DNA of 48,112 bases from Candidatus Woesearchaeota archaeon. GTDB lineage: Archaea > Nanobdellota > Nanobdellia > Woesearchaeales > JAGVYU01. Location: positions 1 to 48,112 of the forward strand of contig JAGVYU010000012.1 in NCBI GenBank assembly GCA_018303105.1, given 5' to 3'. Below, in pieces: positions 5,133-21,206 of this stretch (position 1 is the first letter of the stretch; each line of letters starts with the position of its first letter). Made by a program: the position numbers and the translations under genes. The notes under the pieces were generated by a model. The model saw only the letters and a list, made by a program, of their open reading frames with translations, was not told where the DNA came from and did not search any database.

Positions 5133-5166
5133 GGAATACTCCCAAGTCATCAACTATTTAAATGTA

Positions 5167-5256: not shown

Positions 5257-5317
5257 AATAGTGGAGTTAAGAATTGGAATTCCGTTTATAAGCTTTTGGT
5301 CGCGACAAAGTTTATAC

Positions 5318-5395
5318 GGCGGCGACGAGGCGGGGGTTGTCCCTTACGGGGTGCCGAGTAGGGCATTTTGCGCAGCAAAATGACCGTCGCCTGCC
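5318..5395. ncRNA. Candidate small structured RNA or repeat element
   Basis: GC-rich island in an AT-rich spacer; terminal stem GGC-GGCGACG/CGTCGCC-T-GCC; internal hairpin CATTTTGC-GCA-GCAAAATG; TTTATAAG at 5285-5292. Confidence 0.35.
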
Positions 5396-5443
5396 AATTC
5401 TATCATAGAATATGATTAAAGTTGAGCTACTGGAAAAAATCCT

Positions 5444-5944
5444 TTAATGCCTGTACAAATTCAAGAACGCTTTGATCTGGTACACGAGCATGTTGAAGTC
5501 GTTCATGACCTCTCCCTTGTACTGGTTCGTGTACGTCTTGTACAAATACCTATCCACAATCGTGCGGACGAAGTGAAACACGGGCTTCGCTTCCCAGCGA
5601 TGCTCATAATCCGTTTCGAAGATCGCGTCAAAAATGAGCTGCACTTTTCCCTGGTTGAGCTTGATCTTGACTCCGTCTTTTTCAACCTCGACTTCCTTGA
5701 TTCCCGTCATGAGGATTCTCACGCGTATGATGCTCTGCGCGTAATCCGTGATTTTCTTCCACGGCTCGACTTCGATCTCTATGTCTTTCCCGTTCGGAGT
5801 AACCCGCTCAATGTTTTTCTTCTCATGTTTATCATAGCCTTTTTCCTCAAAATACTCATCAATGAGAGAATACAGGTCTGCTACGCTAAACAAGCCTTCA
5901 TACGTCATTCTTCGCTTGTCCACGAGAATCTCGCGCTCGCTCAT
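5444..5944 (-). CDS. Conserved hypothetical protein (tandem paralog 3)
   Basis: YEGLFS..LY..I..YF...GY..E...WK....Y...DYE.RWE pattern shared with the two upstream genes. Confidence 0.75.
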   Translation of the reverse strand: MSEREILVDKRRMTYEGLFSVADLYSLIDEYFEEKGYDKHEKKNIERVTPNGKDIEIEVEPWKKITDYAQSIIRVRILMTGIKEVEVEKDGVKIKLNQGKVQLIFDAIFETDYEHRWEAKPVFHFVRTIVDRYLYKTYTNQYKGEVMNDFNMLVYQIKAFLNLYRH

Positions 5945-6468
5945 GTGACCCTGATCCTCGATGCGTCTGTGATCGTTTCCATTCCGAGTTTCTCCTTTAT
6001 AAGCCTATGCAATTTATAGTTCGTAAAATAGAGCGTGTCATACCATTCGCCTGTGATTTTCTTGAACGCGATGTAGTTGTTGTAGAAGTCCCGGAGCGAC
6101 CGCAACCACCGAGTTTTTTCATAGCGGTTCTTGTAATCAAGCTCGAAAGACCCTCCAATATCGACCTGGAGCTTGAAATGCTGCTTTTGCACTTTCTCCC
6201 CATTCTCAACGGATTCAACATCCCTGATCTGCCACGTATGAAACACAAGTTTGATGTGGTATTTGCAATACTCCGTCCAGTTTTTACTACCAATCCACGT
6301 GAGCTCATGCTCATGACCTCCTATTTCATCGTTCCACTTGTTAACCGTCTCCTGAAACTCATACCCTTGGTCAACGATCCAAGTCCTGATCATTGTGAGG
6401 AGGCCATTATAGTCTCCTATGCCGGTATACCGTATGCGAAGGGTGCGCACGGGAATGTTGATGGACAT
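5941..6468 (-). CDS. Conserved hypothetical protein (tandem paralog 2)
   Basis: Same pattern (YTG..DY..L...IR.W....GY...E; DYKNRYE); 4-nt overlap with the next gene. Confidence 0.75.
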   Translation of the reverse strand: MSINIPVRTLRIRYTGIGDYNGLLTMIRTWIVDQGYEFQETVNKWNDEIGGHEHELTWIGSKNWTEYCKYHIKLVFHTWQIRDVESVENGEKVQKQHFKLQVDIGGSFELDYKNRYEKTRWLRSLRDFYNNYIAFKKITGEWYDTLYFTNYKLHRLIKEKLGMETITDASRIRVT

Positions 6469-6504
6469 TGAATTCCTCAGAGAAATGATGTTTATAAAGA
6501 TTGC

Positions 6505-7134
6505 TTATTTCAACGGCCTCTTCATATCCCAGTAGAACGTCTGGTCTTCGCGCTGCGGCAGGTACGTCGCGATGTTAAAGTACGTCTTGAGCGCTTCTTG
6601 GAAGCGGTACATTTCATTATAGAGATCGCGCCTGTGCTGCGCTATTCTTTTGTTGTAGATGCGTCGTGTGAAAAGCGTATGCATGTGTTTAAGCAGCGAA
6701 TCCTTGCGCCATGAGCCCTGCGCGTCAAACGCCACCCTTCCTGAAAGCCGCACTTCACAGTCCCCTGTGTTGACTTTGTACTTGACATTATTGTGCATCG
6801 TCTCTGCTTCCTTCATATAAAGAATATGAAAATCAATATCGAGCATATACATGAAGTACTTCGTGTTCTCAAAGCCCGGTGGGTATTTAACGCAGCGCCA
6901 CCATATGAAGATTTCCTCGCCCGCAGTCTGATGAAAGATGTGATAGTACAGTTTCTCGGGAAACTTTTCATCATCATACGTTACCCATCCGTTCTCTACG
7001 AGCCACTCGCGCATCATCAAGTACAAATTTTTCATGGAGAACATGGCTTTATGCTTGAGCTGCATCCCGGGAACTGCTGCAACATACATTTCTTTAAGCT
7101 TGCTTAAGCGATGCGTACTGAGCGGCATATGCAC
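6505..7134 (-). CDS. Conserved hypothetical protein (tandem paralog 1)
   Basis: Same pattern (FSMKNLY..MREWL.ENGW...E..Y; D..G.W); exact start uncertain. Confidence 0.72.
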   Translation of the reverse strand: MHMPLSTHRLSKLKEMYVAAVPGMQLKHKAMFSMKNLYLMMREWLVENGWVTYDDEKFPEKLYYHIFHQTAGEEIFIWWRCVKYPPGFENTKYFMYMLDIDFHILYMKEAETMHNNVKYKVNTGDCEVRLSGRVAFDAQGSWRKDSLLKHMHTLFTRRIYNKRIAQHRRDLYNEMYRFQEALKTYFNIATYLPQREDQTFYWDMKRPLK

Positions 7135-7242
7135 ACCGGGGCAATTTCACTTTATAAGGTTTTTCTTTTTGACGGGGCATCATACAAGAAAGATGTAAAA
7201 GAAACCCTAAAGTATTTAAACGAAATTGCATTTTGAAGCTGG

Positions 7243-8442
7243 ATGCAAGTGGGCATTGTAGGCAAGGCGAACGTTGGAAAGTCAACATTTTTCAAAGCAG
7301 CAACACTGGCTGAAGTGGAGATCGCGAATTACCCTTTCGCAACGATTAAACCCAATACGGGCGTAGGGTATGTGAAAGTCCCGTGTGTGGATAAGGAGCT
7401 TAACACGCAGTGCAATCCAAGAGAAGGATTTTGCATTGAACATAATCGGTTTGTGCCCGTTCAGATGATAGACGTCGCAGGACTAGTCCCGGGTGCTCAT
7501 GAGGGCAAAGGCATGGGTAACCAGTTTCTCGATGACTTAAACCAGGCAGATGTACTTATTCACGTTGTTGACGCAGCGGGATCAACGAATGAAAAGGGGG
7601 AGTACCAGGCTCCAGGGTCAAATGATCCTATTAATGATATCAAATTCCTTGAGATTGAGCTCGACATGTGGTACCTAGGAATGATGAAGAAAGTCTGGGA
7701 ACGGTTCTCACGGCAGGTAACCCAAGAAAATCTTGAGAATTACAAGGCGATTGTCAAGCAGTTCTCAGGCCTCGGTGTGTCTGAGACGATTGCAAAAATA
7801 GCGATGAAGCAACTCAATCTGGAGAGTAAGAAGATCGGCCAGTGGAGTGAAGAGGAAACCTTCCATCTCGCGCAATTGTTAAGAAAGATGACGAAGCCCA
7901 TGATTATTGCTGCGAATAAGATTGATGTTTCTATCGCGCGGGAAAACCTGAAGCGCATGCAGCAGGCGTTTCCAGAGTATAAGATCATCGGATGTTCAGG
8001 AGATTCTGAGCTTGCGTTGAGGGAAGCCGCAAAGCACGGGCTCATCAAGTATATTCCGGGAGAAACGGAGTTCCATATTGTGGATGATGCAAAGCTGAGC
8101 GACAAGCAAAAGGCCGCCCTCGCATTTATCAAAAGCAATGTGCTCGACCCTATGGGAAGCACGGGTGTGCAGCATGTTCTGGACGCTGCCGTGTTCGAGC
8201 TGCTTAAATACATTGCCATCTTTCCCGGGGGAGTGCATAAGCTCGAAGACCAGTTTGGAAGAAGACTTCCCGATTGTTTTCTCATGCCTCCGGGAACGAC
8301 CGCGTTGAGTTTCGCGTTCAGAGTCCATACGGATCTTGGCACTCATTTCATTCGCGCAATAGACGTAAGAACAAAAATGGCCGTGGGAAAGGAACACCCC
8401 TTGAAACATCGGGATATTATTGAGATTGTGAGCGGCAAGTAA
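7243..8442 (+). CDS. ychF: Obg-family translation-associated NTPase YchF (archaeal type)
   Basis: GKANVGKST, NYPFATI, DVAGLVPGAHEGKGMGNQFL, ANKID, C-terminal TGS (AFRVHTDLG); Cys-containing insert typical of archaeal members. Confidence 0.93.
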   Translation: MQVGIVGKANVGKSTFFKAATLAEVEIANYPFATIKPNTGVGYVKVPCVDKELNTQCNPREGFCIEHNRFVPVQMIDVAGLVPGAHEGKGMGNQFLDDLNQADVLIHVVDAAGSTNEKGEYQAPGSNDPINDIKFLEIELDMWYLGMMKKVWERFSRQVTQENLENYKAIVKQFSGLGVSETIAKIAMKQLNLESKKIGQWSEEETFHLAQLLRKMTKPMIIAANKIDVSIARENLKRMQQAFPEYKIIGCSGDSELALREAAKHGLIKYIPGETEFHIVDDAKLSDKQKAALAFIKSNVLDPMGSTGVQHVLDAAVFELLKYIAIFPGGVHKLEDQFGRRLPDCFLMPPGTTALSFAFRVHTDLGTHFIRAIDVRTKMAVGKEHPLKHRDIIEIVSGK

Positions 8443-9676
8443 TATCCATTCCCAGCTTTTTGAGTTTTGCATCGAACATCATATAGCCCCTCTGGATATG
8501 CTCAATTCCTGATATCATTGTCGTATTCTCCGCAGCGCTCGCTGCCAGAACAAGCGCGGCTCCTGCGCGCAGGTCAGTTGCGGTTACGTTCGCTCCGGAG
8601 AGAGATGCCCCTCCAGGAATATGTGCTGCGTCTCCTTTGACCGTTATCCCGGCGCCTAAGCGGTTTAACTCATTGATATATGCAAAACGCTCCGAAAATA
8701 CAGTATCCTTAACAACGCTTTTTCCCGCTGCCCGGGCAAGCGCAGCCGCTACGATAGGCTGAAGATCCGTTGGAAATCCAGGATACGGCTTTGCCATGAT
8801 ATGCTGCCCTGTTAACGCTCTGTCGCGATACGCCCGCATGACATTTTGTTTTATCTCCGTTCGAATCCCCAGCGCATGCGCGATCTTGATCGGTGTTGCA
8901 AGATGCTCAGGATTCACATTCTGGATTCGAATGTCATTTCCTTGCAGCATTCCTGCGAGGAGAAGAAACGTTCCCGCTTCAATTCTGTCTGGAATGACAC
9001 GCATCCGGACTCCTGACAGCCTGGACACTCCGCTTATTTTCATAGTTCGGTTTTCTACTCCGATATCGACCCCAGCCGCCCTGAGGAAATCGACGAGCTG
9101 CATCGTTTCCGGTTCAATCGACGCGTTAGAAAGTATAGTAGTTCCCTCCGCACACGCAGCTGCGAGAAGGGCCTGCTGTGTCGCCCCTACACTTACGTGA
9201 GGGAAATCAATGCACGCCCCTTTAAGTTTTTTCGCGGTGAGTTCATACTGTCCATGCCTCACGCGTATGACTGCGCCCATTCTTCGGAATACGAGTTCAT
9301 GCAGGTCTGTTGGCCTGGGTCCTAAGATACATCCACCGGGAATGGCGATCGTCGCACGTCCCATCGTGCTGAGCAGCACGGATGCGAAGAGGATAGACGC
9401 GCGGAGCTTTCCCATATGTTCGTACGTTGCTGCAGCTGATGTGAGTTTATTCGCAAAGATTCGGATATGATCCTGTTGTGTTTTGATAGAGACTCCCAGC
9501 TCCTGAGCGATGGAAATCATATTGTCAATATCAGTTAGCGAAGGAATATCCTCAAGTACGCATGGTTTCCGTGTTAATACTGCCGCGGCAATGAGGGGAA
9601 GCGCAGCGTTTTTAGAGCCTGAGATACTCACTGATCCCTGTAATCGTTTTCCGCCTCTGATTACAAAGTTAGCCAT
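8417..9676 (-). CDS. murA: UDP-N-acetylglucosamine 1-carboxyvinyltransferase
   Basis: GSKNAALP, LRASI, PGGCILGPRPTDLH (active-site Cys loop), SVGAT, DRIEAGT, YPGFPTDLQP, DLRAGAAL, IQRGY; start at MANFVIRGG. Confidence 0.96.
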   Translation of the reverse strand: MANFVIRGGKRLQGSVSISGSKNAALPLIAAAVLTRKPCVLEDIPSLTDIDNMISIAQELGVSIKTQQDHIRIFANKLTSAAATYEHMGKLRASILFASVLLSTMGRATIAIPGGCILGPRPTDLHELVFRRMGAVIRVRHGQYELTAKKLKGACIDFPHVSVGATQQALLAAACAEGTTILSNASIEPETMQLVDFLRAAGVDIGVENRTMKISGVSRLSGVRMRVIPDRIEAGTFLLLAGMLQGNDIRIQNVNPEHLATPIKIAHALGIRTEIKQNVMRAYRDRALTGQHIMAKPYPGFPTDLQPIVAAALARAAGKSVVKDTVFSERFAYINELNRLGAGITVKGDAAHIPGGASLSGANVTATDLRAGAALVLAASAAENTTMISGIEHIQRGYMMFDAKLKKLGMDITCRSQSQ

Positions 9677-10538
9677 ATGGAATAATCTCCACTTCAGGCT
9701 GCAACAGCACACCTGATTTCTTTTTTACGGTTTTTTGAATGTGGCGGATAAGCCATACAATGTCACGCGACGTGGCATTTCCCGTATTCACTATCCAGTT
9801 TGCGTGATGCTCGGACACTTTAGCTCCTCCTTTTTGAAACCCCTTTAATCCTGCTGCTTCAATAAGCTGCCATGCTTTCCTGCTCTTTGGATTAATAAAG
9901 GTAGATCCAGCACTGGGCTCACTGAGGGGTTGTGTTTGAGTTCGATAGATTAGGGTTTGTTTTATCGTCGCTTGAATAAAGGTGTTTGGCTTGCTCACGA
10001 GTTTAAATGTTGCCTCAACGATAATATGACCCCGCATTCCTCTATGATACGCAAATGAGAGTTTTGATTTGGGCAGTATTTTTGTCCCTTGAGGTGTAAG
10101 CACCGTCACACTCTCTAAGACATCACTCGTCTGCACGCCATATGCTCCCACATTATTTGCGACTGCTCCCCCGACGCTTGCCGGGATTCCTATTAATTTC
10201 TCCAAACCCGAGAGATTATGGGCTGCGCATTTCAAGATAAGGCTTGATAAGGGCAATCCAGCTCCGACGCGTACGCGCTTGCCAGAGAACGTGAGGGCCA
10301 TGAGCTTTTTGAGCGAGATCACGCATCCCTTATACCCCTTGTCGGAGAAGATAAGATTTGAACCTCTCCCCAGGATAACATAGCGTATGTGCTCCTTGCG
10401 CAGCCGTGCAATAAGAGATTGAAGTTCTTGAACATTCTCAGGCGTAGCAAAGTATGATGCTGGTCCTCCCACCTTCATGGTTGTGTGGTGTGATAAGGGT
10501 TCTTTTTCCCGGACATTACGGCTTTTTAGTGCGTGCAT
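9669..10538 (-). CDS. murB: UDP-N-acetylmuramate dehydrogenase
   Basis: LSHHTTMKVGGPA, LGRGSNL, GIPASVGGAVANNVGAYG, QP...PSAGSTF.NP, HANWIVN, LQPEV. Confidence 0.95.
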   Translation of the reverse strand: MHALKSRNVREKEPLSHHTTMKVGGPASYFATPENVQELQSLIARLRKEHIRYVILGRGSNLIFSDKGYKGCVISLKKLMALTFSGKRVRVGAGLPLSSLILKCAAHNLSGLEKLIGIPASVGGAVANNVGAYGVQTSDVLESVTVLTPQGTKILPKSKLSFAYHRGMRGHIIVEATFKLVSKPNTFIQATIKQTLIYRTQTQPLSEPSAGSTFINPKSRKAWQLIEAAGLKGFQKGGAKVSEHHANWIVNTGNATSRDIVWLIRHIQKTVKKKSGVLLQPEVEIIPYG

Positions 10539-11571
10539 GATCGTTCAGTATTGTTTTAACAATGAGGGGCGTTGGGTTGCCGGGTAGGCATGCTGCGCAT
10601 GCGTTGGACATCGCTCGTAACCTCTTCTGCGTAAGCAAGCGCAAGGTGGGAAGTAGCTCCTTATGAAGCCGTTGCGACGGAATCATGATAGCGGTTCCTT
10701 TATGCGCGGCGTACAGCGCATTATACAACTGGTGGTTGTCCTTCACGTGCGGATGCGGAACGATGATTGCGGGTTTTCGCGCTGCCCATAATTCAACAAG
10801 GCTTGTCGCTCCTGCCCTGCATAGAACAACGTCTGCAGCTGCGTAATAAGCGCTGAGGTCTGCCAAAAAGTCCCGTACAATCATTTGTTTATATGTACTG
10901 TATTTCGGAAGCAGGGGATCATAATATTTTTTTCCCGTGACGTGAATAATGAAGATGTGTTTCTTCTTTAATCGAGGGAGAATGCTGCATACTGCCTCAT
11001 TAATGTCCTTCGCTCCATTCGTGCCTCCAAATGCGAGGAGGACAAACGTGTGTCTGGGGATGCGGAGTTTCTTACGTGATCGTGCTTGGGAAAGATGGAA
11101 GAGATGGGATGCCACGGGATTTCCGCAGAGCATTGTTTTCGATTTGAAATATCGCTCTGGTCCTGGCAGGAATGCAATGTTCAATTTGGAAAACCTGCTC
11201 AGGAGCCGGTTTGCTCGTCCCGGCAGCGCGTTTTGCTCGAAGAGGTATACGGGAATGCGAAGCGATCGCGCAGCGAGCACCGCCGGAATAGTAAAGTATC
11301 CCCCCATGCTGAGGACAATCCCGATTTTTTTTTGTTTTAGAATGGTTCTCGCGTCAAGATACGCTTTCGATAGCTGCATGAGAAACCGAGGAGTTTCAAT
11401 AAGCGTATGCTTCGCTTCAAGATCAAGCAGGAAAGGGGTTCCGGACACATAAGGCTTCATGGCACGGTCCGTGAGATAAAAGACATTATGGCGCTTTCGC
11501 AGCGTCTGTGCGAGCACATTCCCCGGCTTGACATGGCCCAATGTTCCCCCCGCCACGATTGCAATGCGCAT
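10516..11571 (-). CDS. murG: Lipid I GlcNAc transferase (GT28)
   Basis: GGTLGHV, MGGY, EQNALPGRANR, GNP, FGGTNGA, RAGATSLVE, HQLYNA; start at MRIAIVAGG. Confidence 0.94.
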   Translation of the reverse strand: MRIAIVAGGTLGHVKPGNVLAQTLRKRHNVFYLTDRAMKPYVSGTPFLLDLEAKHTLIETPRFLMQLSKAYLDARTILKQKKIGIVLSMGGYFTIPAVLAARSLRIPVYLFEQNALPGRANRLLSRFSKLNIAFLPGPERYFKSKTMLCGNPVASHLFHLSQARSRKKLRIPRHTFVLLAFGGTNGAKDINEAVCSILPRLKKKHIFIIHVTGKKYYDPLLPKYSTYKQMIVRDFLADLSAYYAAADVVLCRAGATSLVELWAARKPAIIVPHPHVKDNHQLYNALYAAHKGTAIMIPSQRLHKELLPTLRLLTQKRLRAMSNACAACLPGNPTPLIVKTILNDHARTKKP

Positions 11572-11590
11572 GATATGATGACAGATCGCT

Positions 11591-11604
11591 GATTTATAAA
11601 GATA
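11591..11604 (-). promoter_or_regulatory. Archaeal TATA box upstream of murG-murB-murA
   Basis: Minus-strand CTTTATAAAT about 20-30 nt upstream of the murG ATG (11571), the same geometry as housekeeping genes in the window. Confidence 0.55.
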
Positions 11605-11696
11605 GTGGACCATAGCGGATCGAGATTGCGTAAACACTGGGCTATTTAAGAATGCGGTAAACTTATAAAACCAAGCTGTGTTTCTAAGGGGGACGT

Positions 11697-12044
11697 ATGA
11701 AAAAAACAGGCCCTGTTTTAACGGGAATAGGTGCGAGCGCTGGCATCGCGGAAGGATTCGTTAAGATCGTGGAGGGAATACGAGACATATCAAAATTTAA
11801 CGAGGGGGATATTTTGGTGACGGAAATCACTGAACCTTCGATGGTGATAATGATGAATAAGGCTGCGGCCATTGTAACAAATCTGGGTGGGATAACCTCT
11901 CATCCGGCTATACTTGCCCGTGAGCTCGGGATCCCCTGTGTTGTTGCAACCAAAACGGCTACGACCATGCTGAAGGAAGGAATGAAAGTTAAAGTTGACG
12001 GGACCAAGGGTGAGGTCTACATCGCTGAAGATGATAAAGAATAA
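11697..12044 (+). CDS. Stand-alone PEP-utilising enzyme phosphohistidine (swivel) domain protein
   Basis: GIGASAG.AEG, GDILV...TEP, GGITSHPAILARELGIPCVV, VKVDG.KG. Confidence 0.88.
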   Translation: MKKTGPVLTGIGASAGIAEGFVKIVEGIRDISKFNEGDILVTEITEPSMVIMMNKAAAIVTNLGGITSHPAILARELGIPCVVATKTATTMLKEGMKVKVDGTKGEVYIAEDDKE

Positions 12045-13131
12045 CCAGCAGCAGTATCCTGAATGGATAGATGAGTTTGCTAGATCGTTTCATCATGCCT
12101 TTAAAAAAATGGTTCCTACAAGCTGGGGTCCTGTTGACGGGTGGGCGCTGCTCTCGCATCTGAATGGCTCTTTTATAAGGAAACTTCATCAGTCGGTTAA
12201 GAAGGTAAAAGAAAAAGAGACCTCTATAAAAGAAGTTGCTGAGAGTTTTTCTTGCCCTTCAACACTACGTCTTGCTTTATATTTTCTCGCCCTTGAATAT
12301 CAGTTCCAAAGCGACAAGGATAAAAAGCAATTCAAAGAGATAATAGAGTTTTTTATTGATGTTCTTAAAGAGATGATCAGAGAAGATATTTTTGCATATG
12401 ATAGAAACATCACACATACCTCCGAGGAAATAAAAAATATCGTAAACAGTACTCCATGGATAAAAGCAGACATTCCCATGGCAAAGGAGGTTGGAAAATT
12501 ATATAGTAGCTTAGCTTCTTTGGTGTATGCAGAGTATAGGGATTTTTTCCCCCAAGATGCACATGATATTTATGGACCCTATGATGTATCGAGCAAATTC
12601 GGGAACGAAGCAATCCTCCTTATAAAGCACTTCATAAAAATTCGCCCTAAGGAAATATGGCCAGATCTCAAATCTTCCTATGATGATGTAAAAATATTTC
12701 AGGTGCTGAAGCACGTTAAATTCAGTTGTGAAGTTATTGGTATGCATTCTCTTTATGAAGGAGATATTGTGAGGAATACCGTTGCACTAGCAGTAAGGAT
12801 TAACAACAAATTCGTTGATGATATACGTGAGGTCGGGCGTGCTCATGAAGAGATTGCCAGAATCGCCACCGACCATTCACGGGTATATGGGGACATGTCC
12901 GAGGCAGAAGTAAAACTTAAGTTTTTGGAATGGTTATGCTACCAGTTCTTTGGATTCTTCCGGATAGCGAATGTTGACTGGCGTCCTACTCAGGAAATGA
13001 TGAGGAGTGTTAAAGATAAGCAAATTCCGAATAGATGTGAAATTAAAGAATTTCCATCATGGGAAGAATACCGCTCAAGTAAGAACTTTGAAATCTTCTG
13101 GTTAAAAGATTTGTACCATAACAGTCATTGA
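12031..13131 (+). CDS. Hypothetical protein coupled to the PEP-swivel gene
   Basis: Long ORF, ATG at 12031 overlapping the upstream gene end, visibly AT-richer than the flanking mur genes; no motif recognised. Confidence 0.7.
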   Translation: MIKNNQQQYPEWIDEFARSFHHAFKKMVPTSWGPVDGWALLSHLNGSFIRKLHQSVKKVKEKETSIKEVAESFSCPSTLRLALYFLALEYQFQSDKDKKQFKEIIEFFIDVLKEMIREDIFAYDRNITHTSEEIKNIVNSTPWIKADIPMAKEVGKLYSSLASLVYAEYRDFFPQDAHDIYGPYDVSSKFGNEAILLIKHFIKIRPKEIWPDLKSSYDDVKIFQVLKHVKFSCEVIGMHSLYEGDIVRNTVALAVRINNKFVDDIREVGRAHEEIARIATDHSRVYGDMSEAEVKLKFLEWLCYQFFGFFRIANVDWRPTQEMMRSVKDKQIPNRCEIKEFPSWEEYRSSKNFEIFWLKDLYHNSH

Positions 13132-13158: not shown

Positions 13159-14049
13159 CTAGAGTGAAGCAACAACAAAAACAAGAGTTAAAGTGAGGGT
13201 GAATATCCAAGATGTGACTGCGATCGTCTGCTCCCCCCATCCAAGCCGGAGAAGCACATAGTGAAATGGCGCGATGGGGAAAAGAGTTCTCCCAAGAACC
13301 ATTCGGGAAAGGATTTGAACAATTGATGTTCCTCCTTCTATAACAATAAAAAGTCCAGCGATAAAAACGAAATATTTGAGCTTTGCGAAGATCGCAATCA
13401 TCGCGAGGAGTGATCCCAATAAGCTGGCCCCCGCGTCTCCCATGAACAATTTCGCGCGCGGAGCATTAAACACAAGAAAACCCGCGGTTGCTCCAATCAC
13501 TGCAAGGACAAATGGTACAAGAGCTGTTGACGCAATGGCCAGGAGTATGAAAAACAGGCCTGAGAGGATAATGATAAAGTTCCCCGCGGCCATGCCATCC
13601 AAACCGTCTGTAATGTTGAATGCGTTCACGAAAAATACGAGGAATAATCCGTTAAACAGGAGATATGGGATGCTTCTTGACGTGGTATAATAAAAAACGA
13701 TGCAGAACGCGACTGCGAGAATGAATTGAAGGATGAGTCGAGTTCTCCAGCGCAATCCCGTCGCGCTTCTCCGCGTGATCTTCAGGGCATCATCGGTTAC
13801 GCCTATCGCAAAAAAGAGTGTGGCAAAAACGAGGATGATAAAATAGTCTGACGTATAGAGGAAAGGTAGAGAGGCAACAAGCGCAAGCAATATGATGATG
13901 CCACCCATCGTCGGCGTTCCTTGTTTCTTCTTGAATGACTGTAAGAGCACGAATTCTTTAATTCCAATCTTGCGTGCAAGAGGAATATAGAAGAGTCCAA
14001 ACAGTACACAGAGGATTAGAGGTACAAAAAAGCTAAGCGCCATACTCAT
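13159..14049 (-). CDS. mraY: Phospho-N-acetylmuramoyl-pentapeptide transferase
   Basis: KKQGTPTMGG, G..DD, NAFNITDGLDG, FNAP.AKLFMGDAG, IEGGTSIVQ, FPIAPFHY; multi-TM. Confidence 0.9.
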   Translation of the reverse strand: MSMALSFFVPLILCVLFGLFYIPLARKIGIKEFVLLQSFKKKQGTPTMGGIIILLALVASLPFLYTSDYFIILVFATLFFAIGVTDDALKITRRSATGLRWRTRLILQFILAVAFCIVFYYTTSRSIPYLLFNGLFLVFFVNAFNITDGLDGMAAGNFIIILSGLFFILLAIASTALVPFVLAVIGATAGFLVFNAPRAKLFMGDAGASLLGSLLAMIAIFAKLKYFVFIAGLFIVIEGGTSIVQILSRMVLGRTLFPIAPFHYVLLRLGWGEQTIAVTSWIFTLTLTLVFVVASL

Positions 14050-14070: not shown

Positions 14071-14080
14071 ATTTATAAGG
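14071..14080 (-). promoter_or_regulatory. TATA box upstream of mraY
   Basis: Minus-strand CCTTATAAAT about 22-31 nt upstream of the ATG at 14049. Confidence 0.45.
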
Positions 14081-15815
14081 TTTTGGGCACTTTCAGGAAG
14101 GGCGTGGGATCCACGGGGATTTTGTTCTTTCGTACCTCAAAATGGAGATGTGTGTAATCATAAACGGTTCCATCTGAGGGTACATTTCCTGTTCTTCCCA
14201 CATATCCAATGCACTCACCGACTCGCACAGTTCTTGGATGACCCTCGAAACTGTCCAAATGTGCGTACCAAAACTCAAAATGTCCGCGCGCGACAATAAC
14301 CGTGTTCCCATAAAGATCCGATATCTCGTGGCGCATACGTCCACGTGCCACGGAGTATACCGGGTCTTTCGCATCCGCAGGCAAATCAATCCCTGTATGA
14401 TAATCGCCGCCTCGTGCCGCCATATAGTATCCAATCGGACGTGGCACCACATGTGCAGCAAGTGGATATGCTTTCGTGTTTGAGTTGTGTTTAATTTGGC
14501 TTGCGAATGTGTCAAGCCCAACCATGCGCGACCCTTTGAGGAGGATAGCATCTCCTGGTTTTGTGTAGGAGAACAGCGCTTTGGTAAGGAGTTCTTTAGT
14601 TGCGCAGAGAGTATATTGGAGATTGCTCTTCCTGAGTACCTTGGCGGTAGTGCGAACATGTTCACCTAACAGAAAAATATGGTCGAATGGAGCTCTAGCA
14701 ATGATGCCTGCTGCTTCTTCATGTTTTTTCGCAGTCCATTTTCCAAGCTCGGCCATATCCCCAAATACAATTAACTTTCTTCTTTTTCTTGTGATCGCAA
14801 CAAACGCCCCTACCGCATTTGCGAGGGATGCGAGATTCGCGTTGTATGAGTCGTTGTAGATGAGCACGTCATTAACAAAGAAGACCTGAGACCTGCCCTG
14901 AAGAGGGAGATAATTGAGCATTGCGTTCTGGATATCCCGTGAGGAAATGGAAAACTGCGATGCAACTGCGATCGCTGCGAGTGTATTGAGCACGTTATGC
15001 GTTCCAGGCACGGGAATCCGCAGCGTAAAAGATTCTCCTGGAGTGTTCACGCGACCGTTCGTAGCTCCGTCTGGAAGTATCCGAATCGAATGAGCTCGAA
15101 TGTGTGCATCAGGGTGTATTCCAAACGTGACAACTTTTGTTTTTGCAAGCGCGTGCATGGCGTCATAATATGGAGAATCCCTATTGAGCACAATGATCGA
15201 ATGCTTGACTGTGTTCAAGTAGCGTATAAGCTCTGTTTTGGCTTCGAAAATCGCCTTCTGAGATCCAAAAGCGCCAATGTGCGCATCATGAATGTTTGTA
15301 ATAATCCCAATAGACGGTTTAGACATCCTGCACCGATGCATGATCTCTCCCTTCTTGGATACGCCTGCCTCCAGAACGGCGATATCATGGTGTGAGGTTA
15401 AGCGGCTCAATGTCAGGGGAAATCCCTGCTCACTATTGAAGTTTCCGGCGGTTTTCAGCACAGAATATTGTGTGCTGAGCATGAGCGCGAGCATTTCCTT
15501 CGTCGTTGTTTTCCCATTGCTGCCGGTTATAAACACAAGCGGTATGCGAGTACGGGCTCTTCGGAACGCTGCAACATCATCAATGGCTTCTTGAACACTG
15601 GCCACACGAATAATTCGCTTGTCCTTCGGAGCTTGTTTTTTGTTTGTAAAGATATATGCTGCTCCCCTCGTGAGCGCATCTTCAACATAGTCGTTTCCAT
15701 CAACATATCTCCCTTTAAACGCGCAAAAAATGTCTCCTTTTTTGATTAGTCTTGAATCTATCTGTAAACGTGCATGAAGGGCTGCAGTTTTTGAGAGACG
15801 GCTAAGCACGCTCAT
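14073..15815 (-). CDS. murF: MurF (D-Ala-D-Ala adding ligase) fused to a C-terminal M23 metallopeptidase
   Basis: IDSR, GRYVDG, ITGSNGKTTTKE, GNFNSEQGFP, EAG, NI..AHI, HN..N, NDSYNAN, GDMAELG, LLKGSR; then HTGIDL, YGN.V, YAHL, IGYVG.TGN, HLHFEV. Confidence 0.92.
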   Translation of the reverse strand: MSVLSRLSKTAALHARLQIDSRLIKKGDIFCAFKGRYVDGNDYVEDALTRGAAYIFTNKKQAPKDKRIIRVASVQEAIDDVAAFRRARTRIPLVFITGSNGKTTTKEMLALMLSTQYSVLKTAGNFNSEQGFPLTLSRLTSHHDIAVLEAGVSKKGEIMHRCRMSKPSIGIITNIHDAHIGAFGSQKAIFEAKTELIRYLNTVKHSIIVLNRDSPYYDAMHALAKTKVVTFGIHPDAHIRAHSIRILPDGATNGRVNTPGESFTLRIPVPGTHNVLNTLAAIAVASQFSISSRDIQNAMLNYLPLQGRSQVFFVNDVLIYNDSYNANLASLANAVGAFVAITRKRRKLIVFGDMAELGKWTAKKHEEAAGIIARAPFDHIFLLGEHVRTTAKVLRKSNLQYTLCATKELLTKALFSYTKPGDAILLKGSRMVGLDTFASQIKHNSNTKAYPLAAHVVPRPIGYYMAARGGDYHTGIDLPADAKDPVYSVARGRMRHEISDLYGNTVIVARGHFEFWYAHLDSFEGHPRTVRVGECIGYVGRTGNVPSDGTVYDYTHLHFEVRKNKIPVDPTPFLKVPKTL

Positions 15816-16803
15816 ATATGTACCGGGCGAGTTTCCTCACTTCTGGATTAAAGCTCAGCTTGAATTTTCCGTACCCTTGAATATTTGGTTTATGACCTAT
15901 GAGGGAGATAGGAAATAATCCCCACAGATTATACTCGGTATGCCCTAAAGTCTTGTAGTGTTGGATAATTCGCCATTGGAGCAGGTTATTTGCCGCAGTT
16001 TTGAACGCAACATCGTTGGAAGCGCCGTATACCCAGTTGATTTTTCGCTTGAATTTCCATATCCATGCTGCTGCGATAATCTCGGAATTGCGCCTCGCGA
16101 TCCACATATCTGCACCATCGTGCTCACGATACTTTAAAAATTTGTGCCTAAGAGCCTTGAAGGGTAAAACCTGTGCTCCCTTCGCATGCATACGTTTCTC
16201 ATAGAGAGCGTAGAAAGATATGAATGCATTATCGCTGTTATCAATGGCGATCGCCAGCGACTGTTTCTCCGCATAGCGTATAGCCGTTCTGCATTTTTTA
16301 TTAAAGGACATGAACAGAGAATCGAGTGGTTGCTGAAGATCTATGAGCGTTGTGATATCCTGTTGGTCTGTACATTGCCTCTTTCCACTGACAAGCGAAA
16401 TGGCATTGTCAGCATAGAGAATAATTTTCAGCGCTCGAGTTACGCGCGGCAACTTCATGATTTCCGTAAACATCATACGGCAAAGCGTTTTTCGGTGCCT
16501 TACTGAGTCAATAATCACAGGAGCATTTCCTGAACGCGTGCCAAACTCAATACCTGTGCTTAACCAGGGCACGCGAAACTTAAGGAGGCTTTTCAAAGGG
16601 TGCCCACGCTCGGCATAAACCTCGCCCACAAGGACGGCAATCGGCTGTCCATGCTCATACGCGCAGAGATACACACAAGGATGTCCAATGTCTTGCTGAG
16701 TCATGTAGTAGAGCGGCGTATGGAAAAAATTCGCGTCCTTGGAATGCGCAAGAACATATTCCCAATCCTCAATATTAACGTCTGTTCTGAACGTGGTGCT
16801 CAT
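15802..16803 (-). CDS. FemABX-like GNAT peptidyltransferase
   Basis: W...L......NFFHT, IDL...L..L...F.KK.R..IR.A.K, F..FY.LY, YGAS, ANNLLQW.II, YNLWG, FK.SF; start at MSTTF. Confidence 0.78.
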   Translation of the reverse strand: MSTTFRTDVNIEDWEYVLAHSKDANFFHTPLYYMTQQDIGHPCVYLCAYEHGQPIAVLVGEVYAERGHPLKSLLKFRVPWLSTGIEFGTRSGNAPVIIDSVRHRKTLCRMMFTEIMKLPRVTRALKIILYADNAISLVSGKRQCTDQQDITTLIDLQQPLDSLFMSFNKKCRTAIRYAEKQSLAIAIDNSDNAFISFYALYEKRMHAKGAQVLPFKALRHKFLKYREHDGADMWIARRNSEIIAAAWIWKFKRKINWVYGASNDVAFKTAANNLLQWRIIQHYKTLGHTEYNLWGLFPISLIGHKPNIQGYGKFKLSFNPEVRKLARYIYERA

Positions 16804-18196
16804 GCGGCAGCTGCTCCGTATATTTCTGTAATGCTCCTTCAAAATTGCTTGAGGACATGAAGAGGACAGCAGTTGGGATTGAACCGTGGCGTTTGAGATA
16901 TGTCACAACGACTTCAGCGGTCTCAATACACTGAACATGAGGATGTTTGAGAATCCGCGCATAGTCTTGAGGTGTTGCAAGCTGTTCTTTCGTGAGAAGC
17001 CGTGATGGCTGCACCCGGTAAATAATCACTTCATCAGCGTCGTTGAATGAATCCATGTAGCGTGCAACATAGCGTTTATTCCTGCTGCTTCCCGTATACG
17101 GTTCAAAGAGCGCTATGAGGTGATGGTGGGGAAACTTCTGCTTCACTGCTCGCACGGTCTCACGCACTTTGCTCGGCTGATGCGCGAGGTCATCAATGAC
17201 GATGAGTGTAGGGCTTTTATACACGATCTCCTGCCTGCGCTGTGTTCCTCTAAATGTCCGAAGCGCTTTTTCAATTGCGGAGTCTGGTATTCCAAGCGTT
17301 TTCGCAACAAGGATCCCGGCGAGCATGTTTTCGACATTGTGCTCTCCATAGAGAAATGCAGCATAGTGATTTGATTTTCCTTCGTAGAGAACATCAAATG
17401 TTGTAAGCGGATTATAGATGATGTGGCGCGCAGAAATGGCTGATGAGGGCTGTAGTCCGTATGTTAATCCGGTTTTTTCGGCATGGGTAAGCACAACAGA
17501 AAGTTCTTTGTTGTGGTCAGATACTATGACGTGGGCATCGGATTTAAGACTTTGGAATAAGTGAACATATGCTTCCTGATATTCCTTATCCGTCGGATAC
17601 ACATTAATGTGATCAAGTTCAGCGCTTGTGAGTACAACGATATCAGGATGGTAATACATGAATTTCGGCTTTTGATCCGCATCTGAGCATGGATATTCGT
17701 CGCCTTCAATAACAAAATACTTTGATTTAGTGATGCGGAAGCTTTTGTCAAGGTTTTTTGGGATGCCGCCAATCAAATAGCTGGGTTGCTCTCCCGCGGT
17801 TTCGAGAATCCACGTTATGATCGCCGTTATCGTTGTCTTTGCGTATGTGCCCACAACGCATATGACCGTGTAGTCTTTGAGGATATCCTCAAGAAGCTCT
17901 GGGAAGGACACAATTTTGATATTTTTCTTCTTCGCTTCTACATATTCTGGATTGTCCAGGAAGGCATGCCTTCCCAAAACGACAAGATCTATATCATCCG
18001 TAATGAATGTAGCATCATACCCGGATTTTTTGAGGATTCCCCGCTTCTCAACAATCGTTTTAACGGGATCGTACGCCTCGTCATCCGAGCCTGTCACTAT
18101 GAATCCCTGGTCCTTGAGCTCAATCGCAATTGCGCTCATAGCAACACCCGCAACTCCAATGAAATGGATTTTTTTAATGCCTTCGAGCATATGCAT
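16775..18196 (-). CDS. mpl: Mur ligase of the MurC/Mpl family, most similar to murein peptide ligase Mpl
   Basis: IHFIGVAGVAMS, TGSD, GTYAKTT, PSYLIGGIPKN, FVIEGDEY....D.KPKF..YHP, ELDH, RRQE, DDLAHQP, FEP; the EGDEY..DxxxKF insert and FEP are Mpl-like. Confidence 0.72.
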   Translation of the reverse strand: MHMLEGIKKIHFIGVAGVAMSAIAIELKDQGFIVTGSDDEAYDPVKTIVEKRGILKKSGYDATFITDDIDLVVLGRHAFLDNPEYVEAKKKNIKIVSFPELLEDILKDYTVICVVGTYAKTTITAIITWILETAGEQPSYLIGGIPKNLDKSFRITKSKYFVIEGDEYPCSDADQKPKFMYYHPDIVVLTSAELDHINVYPTDKEYQEAYVHLFQSLKSDAHVIVSDHNKELSVVLTHAEKTGLTYGLQPSSAISARHIIYNPLTTFDVLYEGKSNHYAAFLYGEHNVENMLAGILVAKTLGIPDSAIEKALRTFRGTQRRQEIVYKSPTLIVIDDLAHQPSKVRETVRAVKQKFPHHHLIALFEPYTGSSRNKRYVARYMDSFNDADEVIIYRVQPSRLLTKEQLATPQDYARILKHPHVQCIETAEVVVTYLKRHGSIPTAVLFMSSSNFEGALQKYTEQLPHEHHVQNRR

Positions 18197-18235: not shown

Positions 18236-19267
18236 ATGGAGATGAAGCTTATTCCGATCATTGCAGCGACATTCTTACTCGTGGGTTGCTCTGGCATCTC
18301 CGACAAACCCGATGCATCGCGCGGCATCTACCTCAACGCGTGGCTTGCGGGAAATGAAATCCGGCTAAACGAGTATGTTGTACGTATGCGCAACACGGGA
18401 ATAAATACTGTAATTATTCACATGCAGGACACGGACGGCATTTTACCGTATGATTCAAAGATTCCTTACGCAATTGAGATTAACGCGACAGAAATACGCA
18501 TCAAGAACGTCTCTGCGTTAGTTGATCGGCTCCATGCTGATGGATTCTATGTTATTGCTAAAGTGGATACGTTTAAGGATAGAAAATTAGCATATGCGCA
18601 TCCAGAGTACGCATTTTCGTATAAGAATGGCTCTCTCTTCGAAGACCGGTTTGGAGTGCACATTGACCCGAATAATCCGGTTGTGTGGGAGTATAAAAAA
18701 GCAATCTACGAAGAGATGTTTGATTTTGGATTTGATGAAGTAATGATTGATTATATTCGGTATCCAGAGCGGGCATACTATGGTGCTCTTAATTCCCCTT
18801 TCACGAAGGGTGATACAAGTATGGAAACTATAGAAGGATTTATGCAATATATACGGGCTAGTCTTCCGTATCAGACTTTTTCTGTGGCGATTTTCTCTAA
18901 TGTATGTCTTGGTGAAGACCATGCGATTGGCCAAAGTGTGGATATCTTTGCACCGTACGTTCAATATATATCCCCCATGCTCTATGTTAGCTTAGATCCA
19001 TATGAGCCCTGGCAGGATGCACGTGGATTTATCGCCAAAAGGACAGAGGCATGCCTCATCAGGATTCAAGGCTCCAATGCCAAACTCCGTCCTTGGCTCC
19101 AGGGATACTCGGACAGATACCAGACTATGAATGCTTCTGCAATACAGCAACAAATAAAAACAGTTGAGCGTTTCCCTGGCGTCGCAGGATGGCAAATATG
19201 GAATTCGGCTGGAAACTATAATGCAACGTTCAAAGCGCTTGAGGAGAATAAGAGTAACCGCGGCTAG
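18236..19267 (+). CDS. Putative glycoside hydrolase lipoprotein (DUF4015-like TIM barrel)
   Basis: Lipobox LLVGC; RGIYL, YVIAK...FKD, IDP....VWEY, GFDEV..DYIRYP, IGQ, YISPMLY, LRPWLQ, WN. Confidence 0.8.
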   Translation: MEMKLIPIIAATFLLVGCSGISDKPDASRGIYLNAWLAGNEIRLNEYVVRMRNTGINTVIIHMQDTDGILPYDSKIPYAIEINATEIRIKNVSALVDRLHADGFYVIAKVDTFKDRKLAYAHPEYAFSYKNGSLFEDRFGVHIDPNNPVVWEYKKAIYEEMFDFGFDEVMIDYIRYPERAYYGALNSPFTKGDTSMETIEGFMQYIRASLPYQTFSVAIFSNVCLGEDHAIGQSVDIFAPYVQYISPMLYVSLDPYEPWQDARGFIAKRTEACLIRIQGSNAKLRPWLQGYSDRYQTMNASAIQQQIKTVERFPGVAGWQIWNSAGNYNATFKALEENKSNRG

Positions 19268-20012
19268 CGTTCTCATCCTGATCATCTGTATCAGTGTATT
19301 GCTCTTCATCCTCACACCTTCAGTAGATAATGTTGAGGGATATCGCCCTAAGGCAGAGTTTGTGTACAATTCCCCTCTTGGTTCAGACGTCACTTTAAAT
19401 GCAACAAACAGCTCATACATCCCATTGAATGACCTTCCTGATTTTTTAGTGAAAGGTATTGTGGCAGTTGAGGATCGCAGATTCTATTATCACCCCGGCA
19501 TTGATCCTATCGCGATCGCGCGTGCGGGAGTCCAAGCTGTCCGGAATCCAGAGAGAATTCAAGGTGCAAGCACAATCACGCAGCAGCTCGCACGCTCGGC
19601 ATATCTAAGTCAGGAAAGAACACTCTCCCGCAAGATGGAGGAGATGATTCTTGCTTTAAAGATCGAATATGCATACCCAAAAGAGAAAATCCTTGAATTT
19701 TACTTCAATGACGTATTCTTTGGGGATCAGATATATATGGATGTATCATATGACCTTACAGTGTACGGTGTTCAGGATGCATCACGATTTTTCTTCGGGA
19801 AAAACGCTTCTAACCTGAGCATATCAGAGGCAGCTTTTCTTACTGCTATACTCAAAGGTCCAAATTATTATCTGACAAGACCTGAAGAGCTTGAAAAACG
19901 TAGACAAGTAGTGCTTGAGATTTGGAGTAGGGAGCATATTATTTCTGAAGAAGAGTATTTAATAGCTCTCCGAGAGCCTACGCAGATAGTACAATCCAAA
20001 GCCGCATCGTAA
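19221..20012 (+). CDS. Monofunctional peptidoglycan transglycosylase (GT51), no transpeptidase domain
   Basis: N-terminal TM; GT51 motifs EDRRFYYHPGID, GASTITQQLAR, RKMEE, KEKILEFYFN, YGV..AS..FFGK, EAAFL; ORF ends after the GT domain. Confidence 0.92.
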   Translation: MQRSKRLRRIRVTAASVLILIICISVLLFILTPSVDNVEGYRPKAEFVYNSPLGSDVTLNATNSSYIPLNDLPDFLVKGIVAVEDRRFYYHPGIDPIAIARAGVQAVRNPERIQGASTITQQLARSAYLSQERTLSRKMEEMILALKIEYAYPKEKILEFYFNDVFFGDQIYMDVSYDLTVYGVQDASRFFFGKNASNLSISEAAFLTAILKGPNYYLTRPEELEKRRQVVLEIWSREHIISEEEYLIALREPTQIVQSKAAS

Positions 20013-21206
20013 TACGGCCATGATGAGCAGCGCAGATGTTGTTGCAATAGCCCCTCCGATCATGCCATAACCGGGGATTAAAAGCGCGTTGAGGATAATA
20101 TTTGCAACAGCCGCCACAGCCGCGATTGCAAGGATAAGCGGTGTTTTCTTCATGGACGCCAATGTTGAGTTAAAGACGCTGAATGGTAAGGATACAAAGT
20201 ATCCCCATGCAAGGATAACTAGGGGTATAACCCCGAGGATATATGCCTCTCCAAAAAAAGTCTGCAGGAGAATCCTTGGGAAGAAAATAAAAAGCAAAAA
20301 CAAAGGCGCGCTGAGGATGAGAATTGTGAAAAATGATCGTATTACCAGTGATTTCGCTTCCTGTGTTTTTTCCGCCATAATGTGGGTTGTCATTGTGGGA
20401 ACAAAGAGGTATAATACCGCTTCCTGAACAACGAGAAGGAGCGCCGCTGTTGGAAGCGCAACGCTGTATATCCCTGCCTCTGAGCTTCCCCTGATGTATC
20501 CAATCATTAAGACATCTGTCCATCGGATGATTAAGTAAAAGAAGCCTGAGAAAAGGAGAGGTAATGAGTAGAGCAGGGGTGTTCTAAAGTCGTATGATGA
20601 CTGTGAAAAGGAGGGCCAAACAAGAAAGAATGCGATTACGCATGTAATGATGAGGGTAAGCGCATGCGCCCATGCTGCCATGGACACCGAGAGAACGAAT
20701 GAGAACAAGAAGAGTGTGAGCACGACTTTAAGGACGCTGTCTCCAAGGTAGCGTAATGAGACATTCGCAAAGATTCGCTTCTCCGCCTGCAGGACAGAAA
20801 ACAGAAGCCATCCGATTGACGCAAAGGGTATGCTTATGGAAAGGATTCTCAGAACTGTTGCAAGCTCCTGAATCTTAAATCGCTCTGCAAGCATTGGCGC
20901 GAAAAACCAAAGCAGTACTGCCAGGAAGATGGAGGCAATACATGCAAGGACAAGCGACGACACGAGATACTGGTGTTGTTTGCGCGGCGCTCCTTTGTAA
21001 TAGGGAAGATGGCGCAAAATACCCTGATCCAGACCAAGAACGCTGATCGTGAACACGATGCCAAAGATAGCCAGGGCGATGCTGAAGACTCCATATTGCT
21101 CTGGCCCGAGCTTAGAGAGGACAATTCGATAGACATAGCCGAGGAGTTTAGCGAGGGATATAGCAATGAGAACAATCCCTGTTGCTGATGTGATTATCTT
21201 GCGCAT
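19959..21206 (-). CDS. MOP-superfamily flippase (Wzx/MurJ-related)
   Basis: About 12 TM; LGPEQYG, LGL..G, D.LMIG....S.EAGIY..A, LN.LLIP.YG..GGAIAT. Confidence 0.85.
   Translation of the reverse strand: MRKIITSATGIVLIAISLAKLLGYVYRIVLSKLGPEQYGVFSIALAIFGIVFTISVLGLDQGILRHLPYYKGAPRKQHQYLVSSLVLACIASIFLAVLLWFFAPMLAERFKIQELATVLRILSISIPFASIGWLLFSVLQAEKRIFANVSLRYLGDSVLKVVLTLFLFSFVLSVSMAAWAHALTLIITCVIAFFLVWPSFSQSSYDFRTPLLYSLPLLFSGFFYLIIRWTDVLMIGYIRGSSEAGIYSVALPTAALLLVVQEAVLYLFVPTMTTHIMAEKTQEAKSLVIRSFFTILILSAPLFLLFIFFPRILLQTFFGEAYILGVIPLVILAWGYFVSLPFSVFNSTLASMKKTPLILAIAAVAAVANIILNALLIPGYGMIGGAIATTSALLIMAVLRCGFGLYYLRRLSESY

Follow-up and report, generated by a model that had tools for sequence, protein, structure and literature searches.

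A MurF ligase joined to an M23 peptidase domain in an archaeon with a reduced murein gene set

Peptidases of the M23 family are known as wall cutters that act outside the membrane, and the chemistry of MurF requires ATP and UDP-linked substrates. To our knowledge, no M23 enzyme that acts in the cytoplasm has been characterised, and our literature searches brought none to light. Other hydrolases do act inside the cell on soluble precursors or on D-Ala-D-Ala, among them VanX and VanY, which share the LAS zinc-site arrangement with M23, with VanY trimming pentapeptide precursors. PgeF is a cytoplasmic editing amidase for position 1 of peptidoglycan precursors (PMC12280929). Natural chimeras of Mur enzymes have likewise been described, passages of one survey listing MurE-MurF, MurC-Ddl, MurC-MurB, MurG-MurC, MurD-FtsW and MraY-MurG; that survey sampled proteins longer than 600 amino acids (aa) from named species, and nowhere uses the words M23 or peptidase (PMC10214165). 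Here, we describe a gene, murF::M23, in a stretch of 48,112 nucleotides (nt; the window, contig JAGVYU010000012.1 of assembly GCA_018303105.1) from a Candidatus Woesearchaeota archaeon, which joins a MurF ligase and an M23 peptidase domain in a single reading frame.

Like the natural MurE-MurF, MurC-Ddl, MurC-MurB, MurG-MurC and MurD-FtsW chimeras, the window protein fuses a Mur ligase to an enzyme of the wall, but the partners in the surveyed passages are all biosynthetic, whereas its own partner is a hydrolase. It resembles PgeF, VanY and VanX as a hydrolase that would work inside the cell, and differs from them in that they belong to other families, are separate proteins and are not fused to a ligase; its activity, moreover, is predicted only. 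Archaeal peptidoglycan hydrolases, for comparison, are treated in the cited parts of a recent study as modular proteins (a catalytic and a wall-binding domain) that are taken to be extracellular, with M23 in Halobacteriales and Nanoarchaeia and with no Mur-ligase fusion described in those parts (PMC12352652).

The fusion protein and its junction

An earlier note, made from the letters of this DNA alone, had described a 580-aa open reading frame (ORF) in which a complete MurF is followed by a short linker and an M23 domain, and domain searches bear this out. Specifically, Pfam places the three Mur-ligase domains on the protein in the order N, central, C (Mur_ligase PF01225 at residues 17-79, Mur_ligase_M PF08245 at 96-285, Mur_ligase_C PF02875 at 307-430), and the NCBIfam murF model TIGR01143 scores 368.8 bits against a curated cut-off of 288.6, with the murE, murD, murC and mpl models scoring far lower. 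The solved MurF 4cvk aligns end to end with residues 6-436 (E 1e-56), and the P-loop GSNGKTT occupies residues 98-104 in the central ATP-binding domain. In its three domains, P-loop, curated score and end-to-end alignment the protein is thus like solved MurF enzymes (4cvk, 1gg4, 3zl8), and it differs from them in its C-terminal M23 domain, in its archaeal host and in that no Ddl was found for the usual substrate. The second half of the fusion is as clear: Peptidase_M23 (PF01551) covers residues 472-570 with 61.3 bits over a cut-off of 28.7, or 65.4 bits in the genome search. The motifs that the note had placed approximately lie exactly there, with KGSRMVG at nt 14517-14537, HTGID at 14385-14399 and HLH at 14142-14150.

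A lost stop, a frameshift or a chimeric contig could in principle produce such a protein, as could a bacterial contig binned into an archaeal metagenome-assembled genome (MAG), and the assembly (G000; 1.30 Mb, 92% complete) is a 72-contig draft; we found nothing else in favour of an artefact and consider one next to inconceivable. The sister genome G001 (same genus, 95% complete) holds the identical 580-codon frame at 89% amino-acid identity, free of stops and gaps, and the exact fusion protein is on record from 7 contigs of several sources. Runs X6 and X10, which belong to two other studies and were not flagged as possible sources, provide contig pieces that bridge nt 14303-14533, and with it the whole linker, with 0 gaps; X6 further contributes a second strain variant of the junction piece, with 20 substitutions and again 0 gaps. 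Four runs, none of them flagged as a possible source, were compared with the gene; contigs of single runs leave parts of it uncovered, and no insertion or deletion is listed in any of the four. Together with divergent homologues that share the fusion, these records, as far as they go, rule out a lost stop, a frameshift or a chimera, and the indel or lost stop for which the note had wanted the junction inspected is not there. Misbinning is ruled out as well: a YGR210-type GTPase domain (PF08438, nt 7909-8226), archaea-only among 14 control genomes, lies directly beside murA on the same contig, and ribosomal protein L21e, whose family matches only the 4 archaea among the same controls, is encoded elsewhere in G000. 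The host of the fusion is archaeal, a point that the note had missed. No SSU rRNA gene was found in the assembly, and the host is probably DPANN-like, judging by its small genome and the small genomes of its 40 order-level relatives.

The ratio of non-synonymous to synonymous change (omega, dN/dS) between G000 and G001 was computed separately for the two parts: the 440 codons of MurF give 0.227, and the 120 codons of M23, where 7 differences are non-synonymous and 14 synonymous, give 0.138. Purifying selection acts on both domains, with the peptidase constrained at least as much as the ligase.

The active site of the M23 domain has been kept in full. Its catalytic set consists of H473-x3-D477, H519 within YAHL, and H556-L-H558, and these five residues align with those of solved M23 enzymes (HxxxD, middle His, HxH) and are invariant in 5/5 aligned fusions that are only 27-29% identical to the window protein, as are the linker residues G462 and R468. 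The note's claim of an intact zinc-ligand set therefore holds. Modelled alone from 56 aligned sequences, the domain reaches a mean predicted local distance difference test (pLDDT) score of 90.2 and adopts the M23 fold, with 63 PDB matches at E <= 0.001, every listed one being either the structure of an M23/LytM domain or a complex with such a domain in it. The best are Neisseria NMB0315 and its gonococcal homologue, Csd1/Csd2, EnvC, LytM, ShyA, DipM, Pgp3, lysostaphin and zoocin A. The full-length model is weaker (pLDDT 69.6, linker below 50), with the N-domain and linker uncertain and the orientation of the domains not reliable.

These matches bear on whether the domain cuts at all. Non-catalytic LytM domains are common, and since the LytM domains of EnvC and DipM are among the close structural matches, the M23 domain might bind peptide stems or partners as a regulator or scaffold, as the LytM factors EnvC and NlpD do. 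Degenerate LytM factors have lost their zinc ligands, however, whereas all ligands are conserved in the fusion, its five catalytic residues are invariant in the aligned fusions and its omega is 0.14, so we regard a non-catalytic role as very unlikely. The domain looks catalytically intact and is predicted to be active. Its nearest solved or curated relatives are peptidoglycan D,D-peptidases (Neisseria 3slu/6muk, Csd1/Csd2, Csd3, ShyA, Pgp3), several of which also act as D,D-carboxypeptidases that remove terminal D-Ala.

With secreted and periplasmic M23 peptidases (NMB0315/NGO1686, Csd1-3, Pgp3, ShyA, LytM, lysostaphin) the domain shares the fold (TM-score normalised to query 0.62-0.74) and the HxxxD...H...HxH catalytic set, and it differs from them in lacking an export signal, in its fusion to a ligase, in an identity of about 25-35% and in a 5-residue insertion directly before HLH that yields YDYTHLH (residues 552-558). 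YDY[T/P]HLH occurs in 19 of the 271 M23 sequences compared, namely in 17/17 fusions, in 1 fusion fragment and in 1 standalone DPANN protein. By this marker, the M23 domain of the fusion is a special subtype found almost only in MurF-like fusions.

Where the domain acts is suggested by what it is attached to. The fusion has no signal peptide, as the note had claimed, and no transmembrane segment, its highest 19-residue Kyte-Doolittle mean being 1.12 overall and 0.45 at the N-terminus. Given that MurF needs ATP and UDP-linked substrates, the M23 domain is therefore predicted to be cytoplasmic, and the usual M23 trait of extracytoplasmic action is not what we see here. One could still suppose a wall hydrolase that works on the host's own or a neighbour's wall, leaving the cell by proteolytic release, by lysis or by another route. 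It is the sole M23 domain of the genome, and, as reported in the cited parts of the archaeal study, only 32% (67/210) of archaeal peptidoglycan hydrolase homologues have a recognised signal peptide (PMC12352652). DPANN proteins that carry this M23 subtype on its own, moreover, are membrane-anchored (L022, L026, L027). Yet the domain is fused to an ATP-dependent cytoplasmic enzyme with no hydrophobic segment, a separate membrane-anchored VanY-like protein (see below) is available for work outside, and bacteria equipped with ordinary secreted hydrolases have the same fusion; an extracellular role is accordingly among the least probable that we considered.

Recurrence of the architecture

The note had not recognised the architecture as described, and that stands as far as the literature goes: searching for "Mur ligase", "M23" and "fusion" together, we found no paper, although supplementary tables (PMC10214165, PMC12352652) might list examples. 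The architecture is nevertheless no one-off. A whole-protein search returned M23-bearing proteins only as the window's own and the sister's clusters (2 of the 120 matches listed). Searching with the M23 part against 1.84 billion representatives gave 13,075 matches at E <= 0.001, the best non-self match being P0124; 46 longer proteins (407-769 aa) among the 150 matches listed were scanned, and 3 of them (P0124, P0146, P0153) carry Mur_ligase_M and Mur_ligase_C before M23. A profile of linker plus M23 ranked fusions first, with at least 12 full-length MurF-like::M23 clusters and one 295-aa fragment among the 120 matches listed. The clusters come from MAGs labelled Kiritimatiellia/Verrucomicrobia, Binatia and Nanoarchaeota, and some of them bear the automated names "Mur ligase family protein" or "peptidoglycan DD-metalloendopeptidase family protein" (MAGs labelled Kiritimatiellia, Binatia).

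Species-representative genomes gave a similar picture, in that YDY[TP]HLH[FV] matched 31 stretches, of which 11 were confirmed as relatives. Six of these are fusions (the sister genome, the Nanoarchaeota-labelled MAG L018, two Verrucomicrobia, one Binatia and one with an Enterobacteriaceae label); the other five comprise 3 standalone membrane-anchored M23 proteins from Woesearchaeota-labelled MAGs and 2 that are irrelevant. A metagenome scan, swamped by a generic second pattern, yielded one fusion among the 80 loci retained, a duplicate of L023. On these sequence comparisons, the fusion is real and conserved, joins two well-known families and is rare; its recurrence in distant bacteria and archaea points to a functional coupling of the two domains.

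The standalone proteins (L022 6693-8297, L026 7641-8432, L027 7683-8456) carry the same insertion as YDYPHLH. Because they share it, the subtype is not strictly tied to Mur ligases, and it may be at home in DPANN archaea.

The other fusions deviate from the window protein in one consistent respect. All 12 of those examined (P0124, P0146, P0153, P0276-P0280, P0283, P0284, L018, L021) begin at position 90 or later of the 461-position MurF profile and thus lack the UDP-binding N-domain, whereas the window protein and its sister (P0002) begin at positions 23-26 and keep it. They share with the window protein the domain order, YDY[T/P]HLH and the linker-entry motif, and differ in their position in the best ligase tree, in polysaccharide or unrelated gene contexts, and in being either extra paralogues or the property of an archaeon without murein genes. 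Specifically, four bacterial fusion hosts contain 6-9 Mur_ligase_M matches each, including dcw-like arrays, making the fusion an additional paralogue in these hosts. The L018 archaeon, by comparison, has the fusion and one weak further Mur_ligase_M match only, and no murein pathway; its locus (186-12147) holds a Wzt/Wzm transporter, GT2, GT4, methyltransferase and B12-radical-SAM genes and an adjacent, convergent Ddl-like ATP-grasp gene. At L019 (3486-8390), GT2, GT4 and polysaccharide pyruvyl transferase genes lie upstream on the same strand, and there are no wall genes near the L020 and L023 fusions. For the N-domain-less fusions, the acceptor of the peptide may be a carboxylated sugar different from MurNAc. 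A fused protein that is the only MurF in a set of murein genes is, as far as gene content tells, peculiar to the window's genus.

Such contexts raise the question of whether the window protein, too, serves something other than murein, its ligase attaching to a different glycopolymer, or to a non-canonical precursor, a peptide that the M23 domain then processes. In favour of this are the GT2, GT4, Wzt/Wzm, methyltransferase, radical-SAM and pyruvyl-transferase genes beside the N-domain-less fusions, and a host pathway that is itself non-canonical, MurD, Ddl and transpeptidases not having been found and MraY and MurG falling under their curated cut-offs. The window protein, however, still has its UDP-binding N-domain and scores above the curated threshold for MurF, the MurA, MurB and MurE of its host pass theirs, and its gene lies between murC-like and mraY, so we judge a non-murein acceptor to be improbable.

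A ligase tree was built with 60 rows, comprising 14 fusions, 45 non-fusion proteins (the first of 118 listed in the whole-protein search) and a MurE outgroup. In it, the window ligase falls among ordinary bacterial MurFs (Shimodaira-Hasegawa-like approximate likelihood ratio test, SH-aLRT, 93), its nearest group including a protein from an Elusimicrobia-labelled MAG, and the N-domain-less fusions fall elsewhere. Forcing the 14 fusions into one clade costs 8.0 log-likelihood units (approximately unbiased test, p-AU 0.343), and the test does not reject such a clade. For M23, a tree of 77 rows and 120 columns is without resolution, with the L018 and P0124 fusions standing nearest to the window after its sister. 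The shared insertion argues that the M23 module, at least, has one origin.

We also searched 40 relatives at the level of the order (genomes of 0.6-2.1 Mb). None of the other 39 gave a full-length fusion match, and the two other genomes of the same family gave no match at all. Together with a ligase that nests among bacterial MurFs, this would make horizontal acquisition of the fusion gene the simplest reading.

Murein genes of the host and the role of the fusion

In the window, murF::M23 belongs to an apparent operon on the minus strand that runs murC-like, femAB-like, murF::M23, mraY (Table 1) and that we infer to have been acquired from bacteria. The FemAB-like gene lies directly upstream, its end overlapping the start of murF::M23 by 14 nt, and mraY starts 23 nt downstream. 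The ligase that opens the operon can be assigned to neither MurC nor Mpl, because both of its scores are under cut-off. A clear MurE is encoded on another contig (G000 C7, about 27.3-28.4 kb; 595.7 bits against an NCBIfam cut-off of 373). We found no published report of murein synthesis genes in DPANN archaea; the cited parts of one paper discuss DPANN genomes for peptidoglycan degradation and not for synthesis (PMC9723730), and those of two papers on pseudomurein do not cover a case such as murF::M23 (PMC11915815, PMC10117817).

Table 1. The fusion gene, its parts and the wall-related genes around it (positions in the window).
Feature	Position (nt)	Strand	Evidence
murF::M23 fusion gene	14073..15815	(-)	580 aa + stop; ORF list, Pfam, NCBIfam
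MurF part, residues 1-440	14496..15815	(-)	TIGR01143, alignment with solved MurF 4cvk, P-loop
Linker, about residues 439-471, with conserved PRPIGYY entering M23	14403..14501	(-)	low pLDDT at 443-473
Peptidase_M23 domain, residues 472-570	14106..14402	(-)	Pfam, genome search, invariant residues, fold model
murA	8417-9712	(-)	445 bits, over cut-off (NCBIfam)
murB	9669-10538	(-)	235.7 bits, over cut-off (NCBIfam)
murG	10516-11637	(-)	225.5 bits, just under cut-off 250.25 (NCBIfam)
MraY-like transferase	13159..14049	(-)	Pfam Glycos_transf_4, MraY_sig1; TIGR00445 147.1 bits, cut-off 192
FemAB/GNAT-like gene	15802..16842	(-)	Pfam Acetyltransf_6 45.2, FemAB 36.7 bits; NCBIfam FemAB-family far below cut-offs
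MurC/Mpl-like ligase, first gene of apparent operon	16775..18196	(-)	murC 274.4 bits (cut-off 335.1), mpl 247.2 (cut-off 388.7)
DUF4015 glycosyl-hydrolase-like gene	18236-19267	(+)	Pfam; no NCBIfam match
GT51 transglycosylase without transpeptidase domain	19164-20012	(+)	NCBIfam matches only the glycosyltransferase part of class A penicillin-binding proteins, under cut-off
Flippase-like Polysacc_synt/MatE gene	19959-21206	(-)	Pfam; NCBIfam under cut-off

The set is reduced. The fusion supplies the only MurF and the only M23 domain found in G000, and both genomes of the genus (G000, G001) contain exactly three Mur_ligase_M genes, which leaves none for MurD. Ddl, alanine racemase, SEDS, Amidase_2 (AmpD-type), LdcA and an Opp-type binding protein were found in 0/2 genomes of the genus, an Asp/Glu racemase in 1/2 (a fragment at a G001 contig end), and G000 gave no match to a penicillin-binding protein (PBP) transpeptidase or to YkuD. 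Both assemblies are drafts and each absence is to be read as "not found", but coincidental loss of murein genes becomes less likely when two assemblies show the same gaps. A 644-aa VanY/M15-like protein with an N-terminal membrane anchor (G000 contig C27, 5417-7348, minus strand) occurs in 2/2 genomes with weak scores of 24-26 bits, its C-terminal domain narrowly missing the Pfam cut-off at 23.4 bits. We take it as a candidate for a wall peptidase outside the cell.

We tentatively favour a bifunctional cytoplasmic ligase-peptidase, in which the tethered M23 domain would trim or proofread the peptide end made by MurF. The ligase domain would add a C-terminal residue or dipeptide to a UDP-MurNAc-peptide, and the M23 domain would then cleave a peptide bond in the soluble precursor pool, its most likely target being the C-terminal end that MurF has just made; we infer both this substrate and this order of the two reactions. 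VanY, which acts on pentapeptide precursors, and PgeF, which edits position 1, follow the same logic. The stem of lipid II would already be processed when it leaves the cytoplasm, as would suit a wall without D,D- or L,D-transpeptidase. Several observations fit such a role. D,D-type bonds, which the nearest M23 relatives cut, occur in the cytoplasm only in the substrate or product of MurF. In this host, where searches for PBP, YkuD and SEDS gave no match, a pentapeptide donor would have no evident user. Nor does the M23 domain have to be exported, since the separate VanY-like protein is available outside.

Other observations weigh against trimming or proofreading. The substrate is guessed from relatives at only about 25-35% identity, and the activity itself is a prediction. 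With Ddl and alanine racemase found in neither genome as assembled (92% and 95% complete), it is not evident that D-Ala-D-Ala is ever made for MurF to add and M23 to trim. The N-domain-less relatives lie in polysaccharide and not in murein clusters, and the function that the family shares may be unrelated to UDP-MurNAc-pentapeptide. The full-length model gives no reliable domain orientation, and tethering a hydrolase to the very enzyme whose product it cuts looks wasteful unless the cut is selective.

The neighbouring FemAB-like gene, which is absent from the contexts of other fusion-family members, offers a further thread. Staphylococcal M23 enzymes cut peptide bridges that Fem-type transferases build, and by this analogy the FemAB-like gene and murF::M23 may be functionally linked.

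The missing Ddl can also be read the other way round, with the peptidase working ahead of the ligase. On that account the M23 domain would cut an imported or endogenous peptide, and the freed dipeptide or amino acid would be ligated by MurF, replacing Ddl. GatD feeding MurT provides the same logic, a hydrolase that supplies a Mur-type ligase. Ddl, alanine racemase and MurD were each found in neither genome, and the MurC and Mpl scores of the upstream ligase are about equal. Known Mur fusion partners, moreover, often make the substrate, as in MurC-Ddl in the survey passages (PMC10214165) and in a MurF/alanine racemase model in NCBIfam. Against this stand the AmpD-type amidase, LdcA and Opp-type binding protein, none of which was found, and the Ddl-like gene that adjoins the L018 fusion; further, the bacterial hosts carry 6-9 Mur-ligase genes, so that in most family members a peptidase would not be needed for supply. 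We also know of no report that M23 enzymes release D-Ala-D-Ala. Supply of the ligase by the peptidase is the chief alternative to trimming or proofreading but, in our estimate, rather unlikely.

A more radical version would have the M23 domain free an amine that MurF pastes directly onto the activated carboxylate of a precursor, an ATP-driven, cytoplasmic cut-and-paste of peptide segments. We think this improbable; if true, a hydrolase-fed ligase would stand in for Ddl, and perhaps for transpeptidation, in an archaeon with a minimal, acquired, murein-like wall set.

The earlier note had itself offered two uses for the domain, namely trimming imported cross-linked muropeptides into substrates for Mpl/MurF, and editing precursors. 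Salvage of muropeptides, a version of the supply account, finds little support, as an AmpD-type amidase, LdcA and an Opp-type binding protein were found in neither genome and the bacterial relatives occur beside a full Mur set; since Ddl and alanine racemase were not found either, it keeps some small probability. Precursor editing appears more plausible than salvage, and it is the editing variant that our preferred trimming or proofreading model develops.

Whichever of these holds, an intact M23 domain inside the cell, joined to the last cytoplasmic precursor ligase, would imply a step of precursor processing or supply beyond the textbook pathway. An archaeon that encodes MurA, MurB, a MurC-like ligase, MurE, MurF, MraY, MurG, GT51 and a flippase-like protein could possess a natural minimal or alternative murein system, and its reduced set offers a test case for what wall building really requires. 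The recurring fusions, for their part, provide several proteins for biochemistry.

Other features of the window and the host genome

A fragment of an IS200/IS605-type transposase (L014 2778-3251, on G000 C7; 50.6 bits, just under a cut-off of 55) adjoins murE, which fits mobile acquisition of the wall genes. Within the murein cluster itself, a pair of genes lies on the opposite (plus) strand at 11697-13131. One encodes a 115-aa protein with a PEP-utilising-enzyme mobile domain and nothing else; the other is a 378-aa ORF that neither Pfam nor NCBIfam matches.

Beyond the cluster, the window holds TruD, KaiC-like, FlaI/FlaJ-like and ALG10-like genes (Pfam) and a tRNA-Thr (TGT) gene at 5167-5256 on the minus strand, further signs of an archaeal host. 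The tRNA gene aligns with the Rfam model over its full 71 positions yet is 90 nt long; an intron, a common feature in archaea, is the probable reason. Downstream of the FlaI/FlaJ-like (T2SSE/T2SSF) set at 35011-38370 lies a 1633-aa ORF (41438-46339, plus strand) with weak von Willebrand factor A matches only, possibly a large surface protein.

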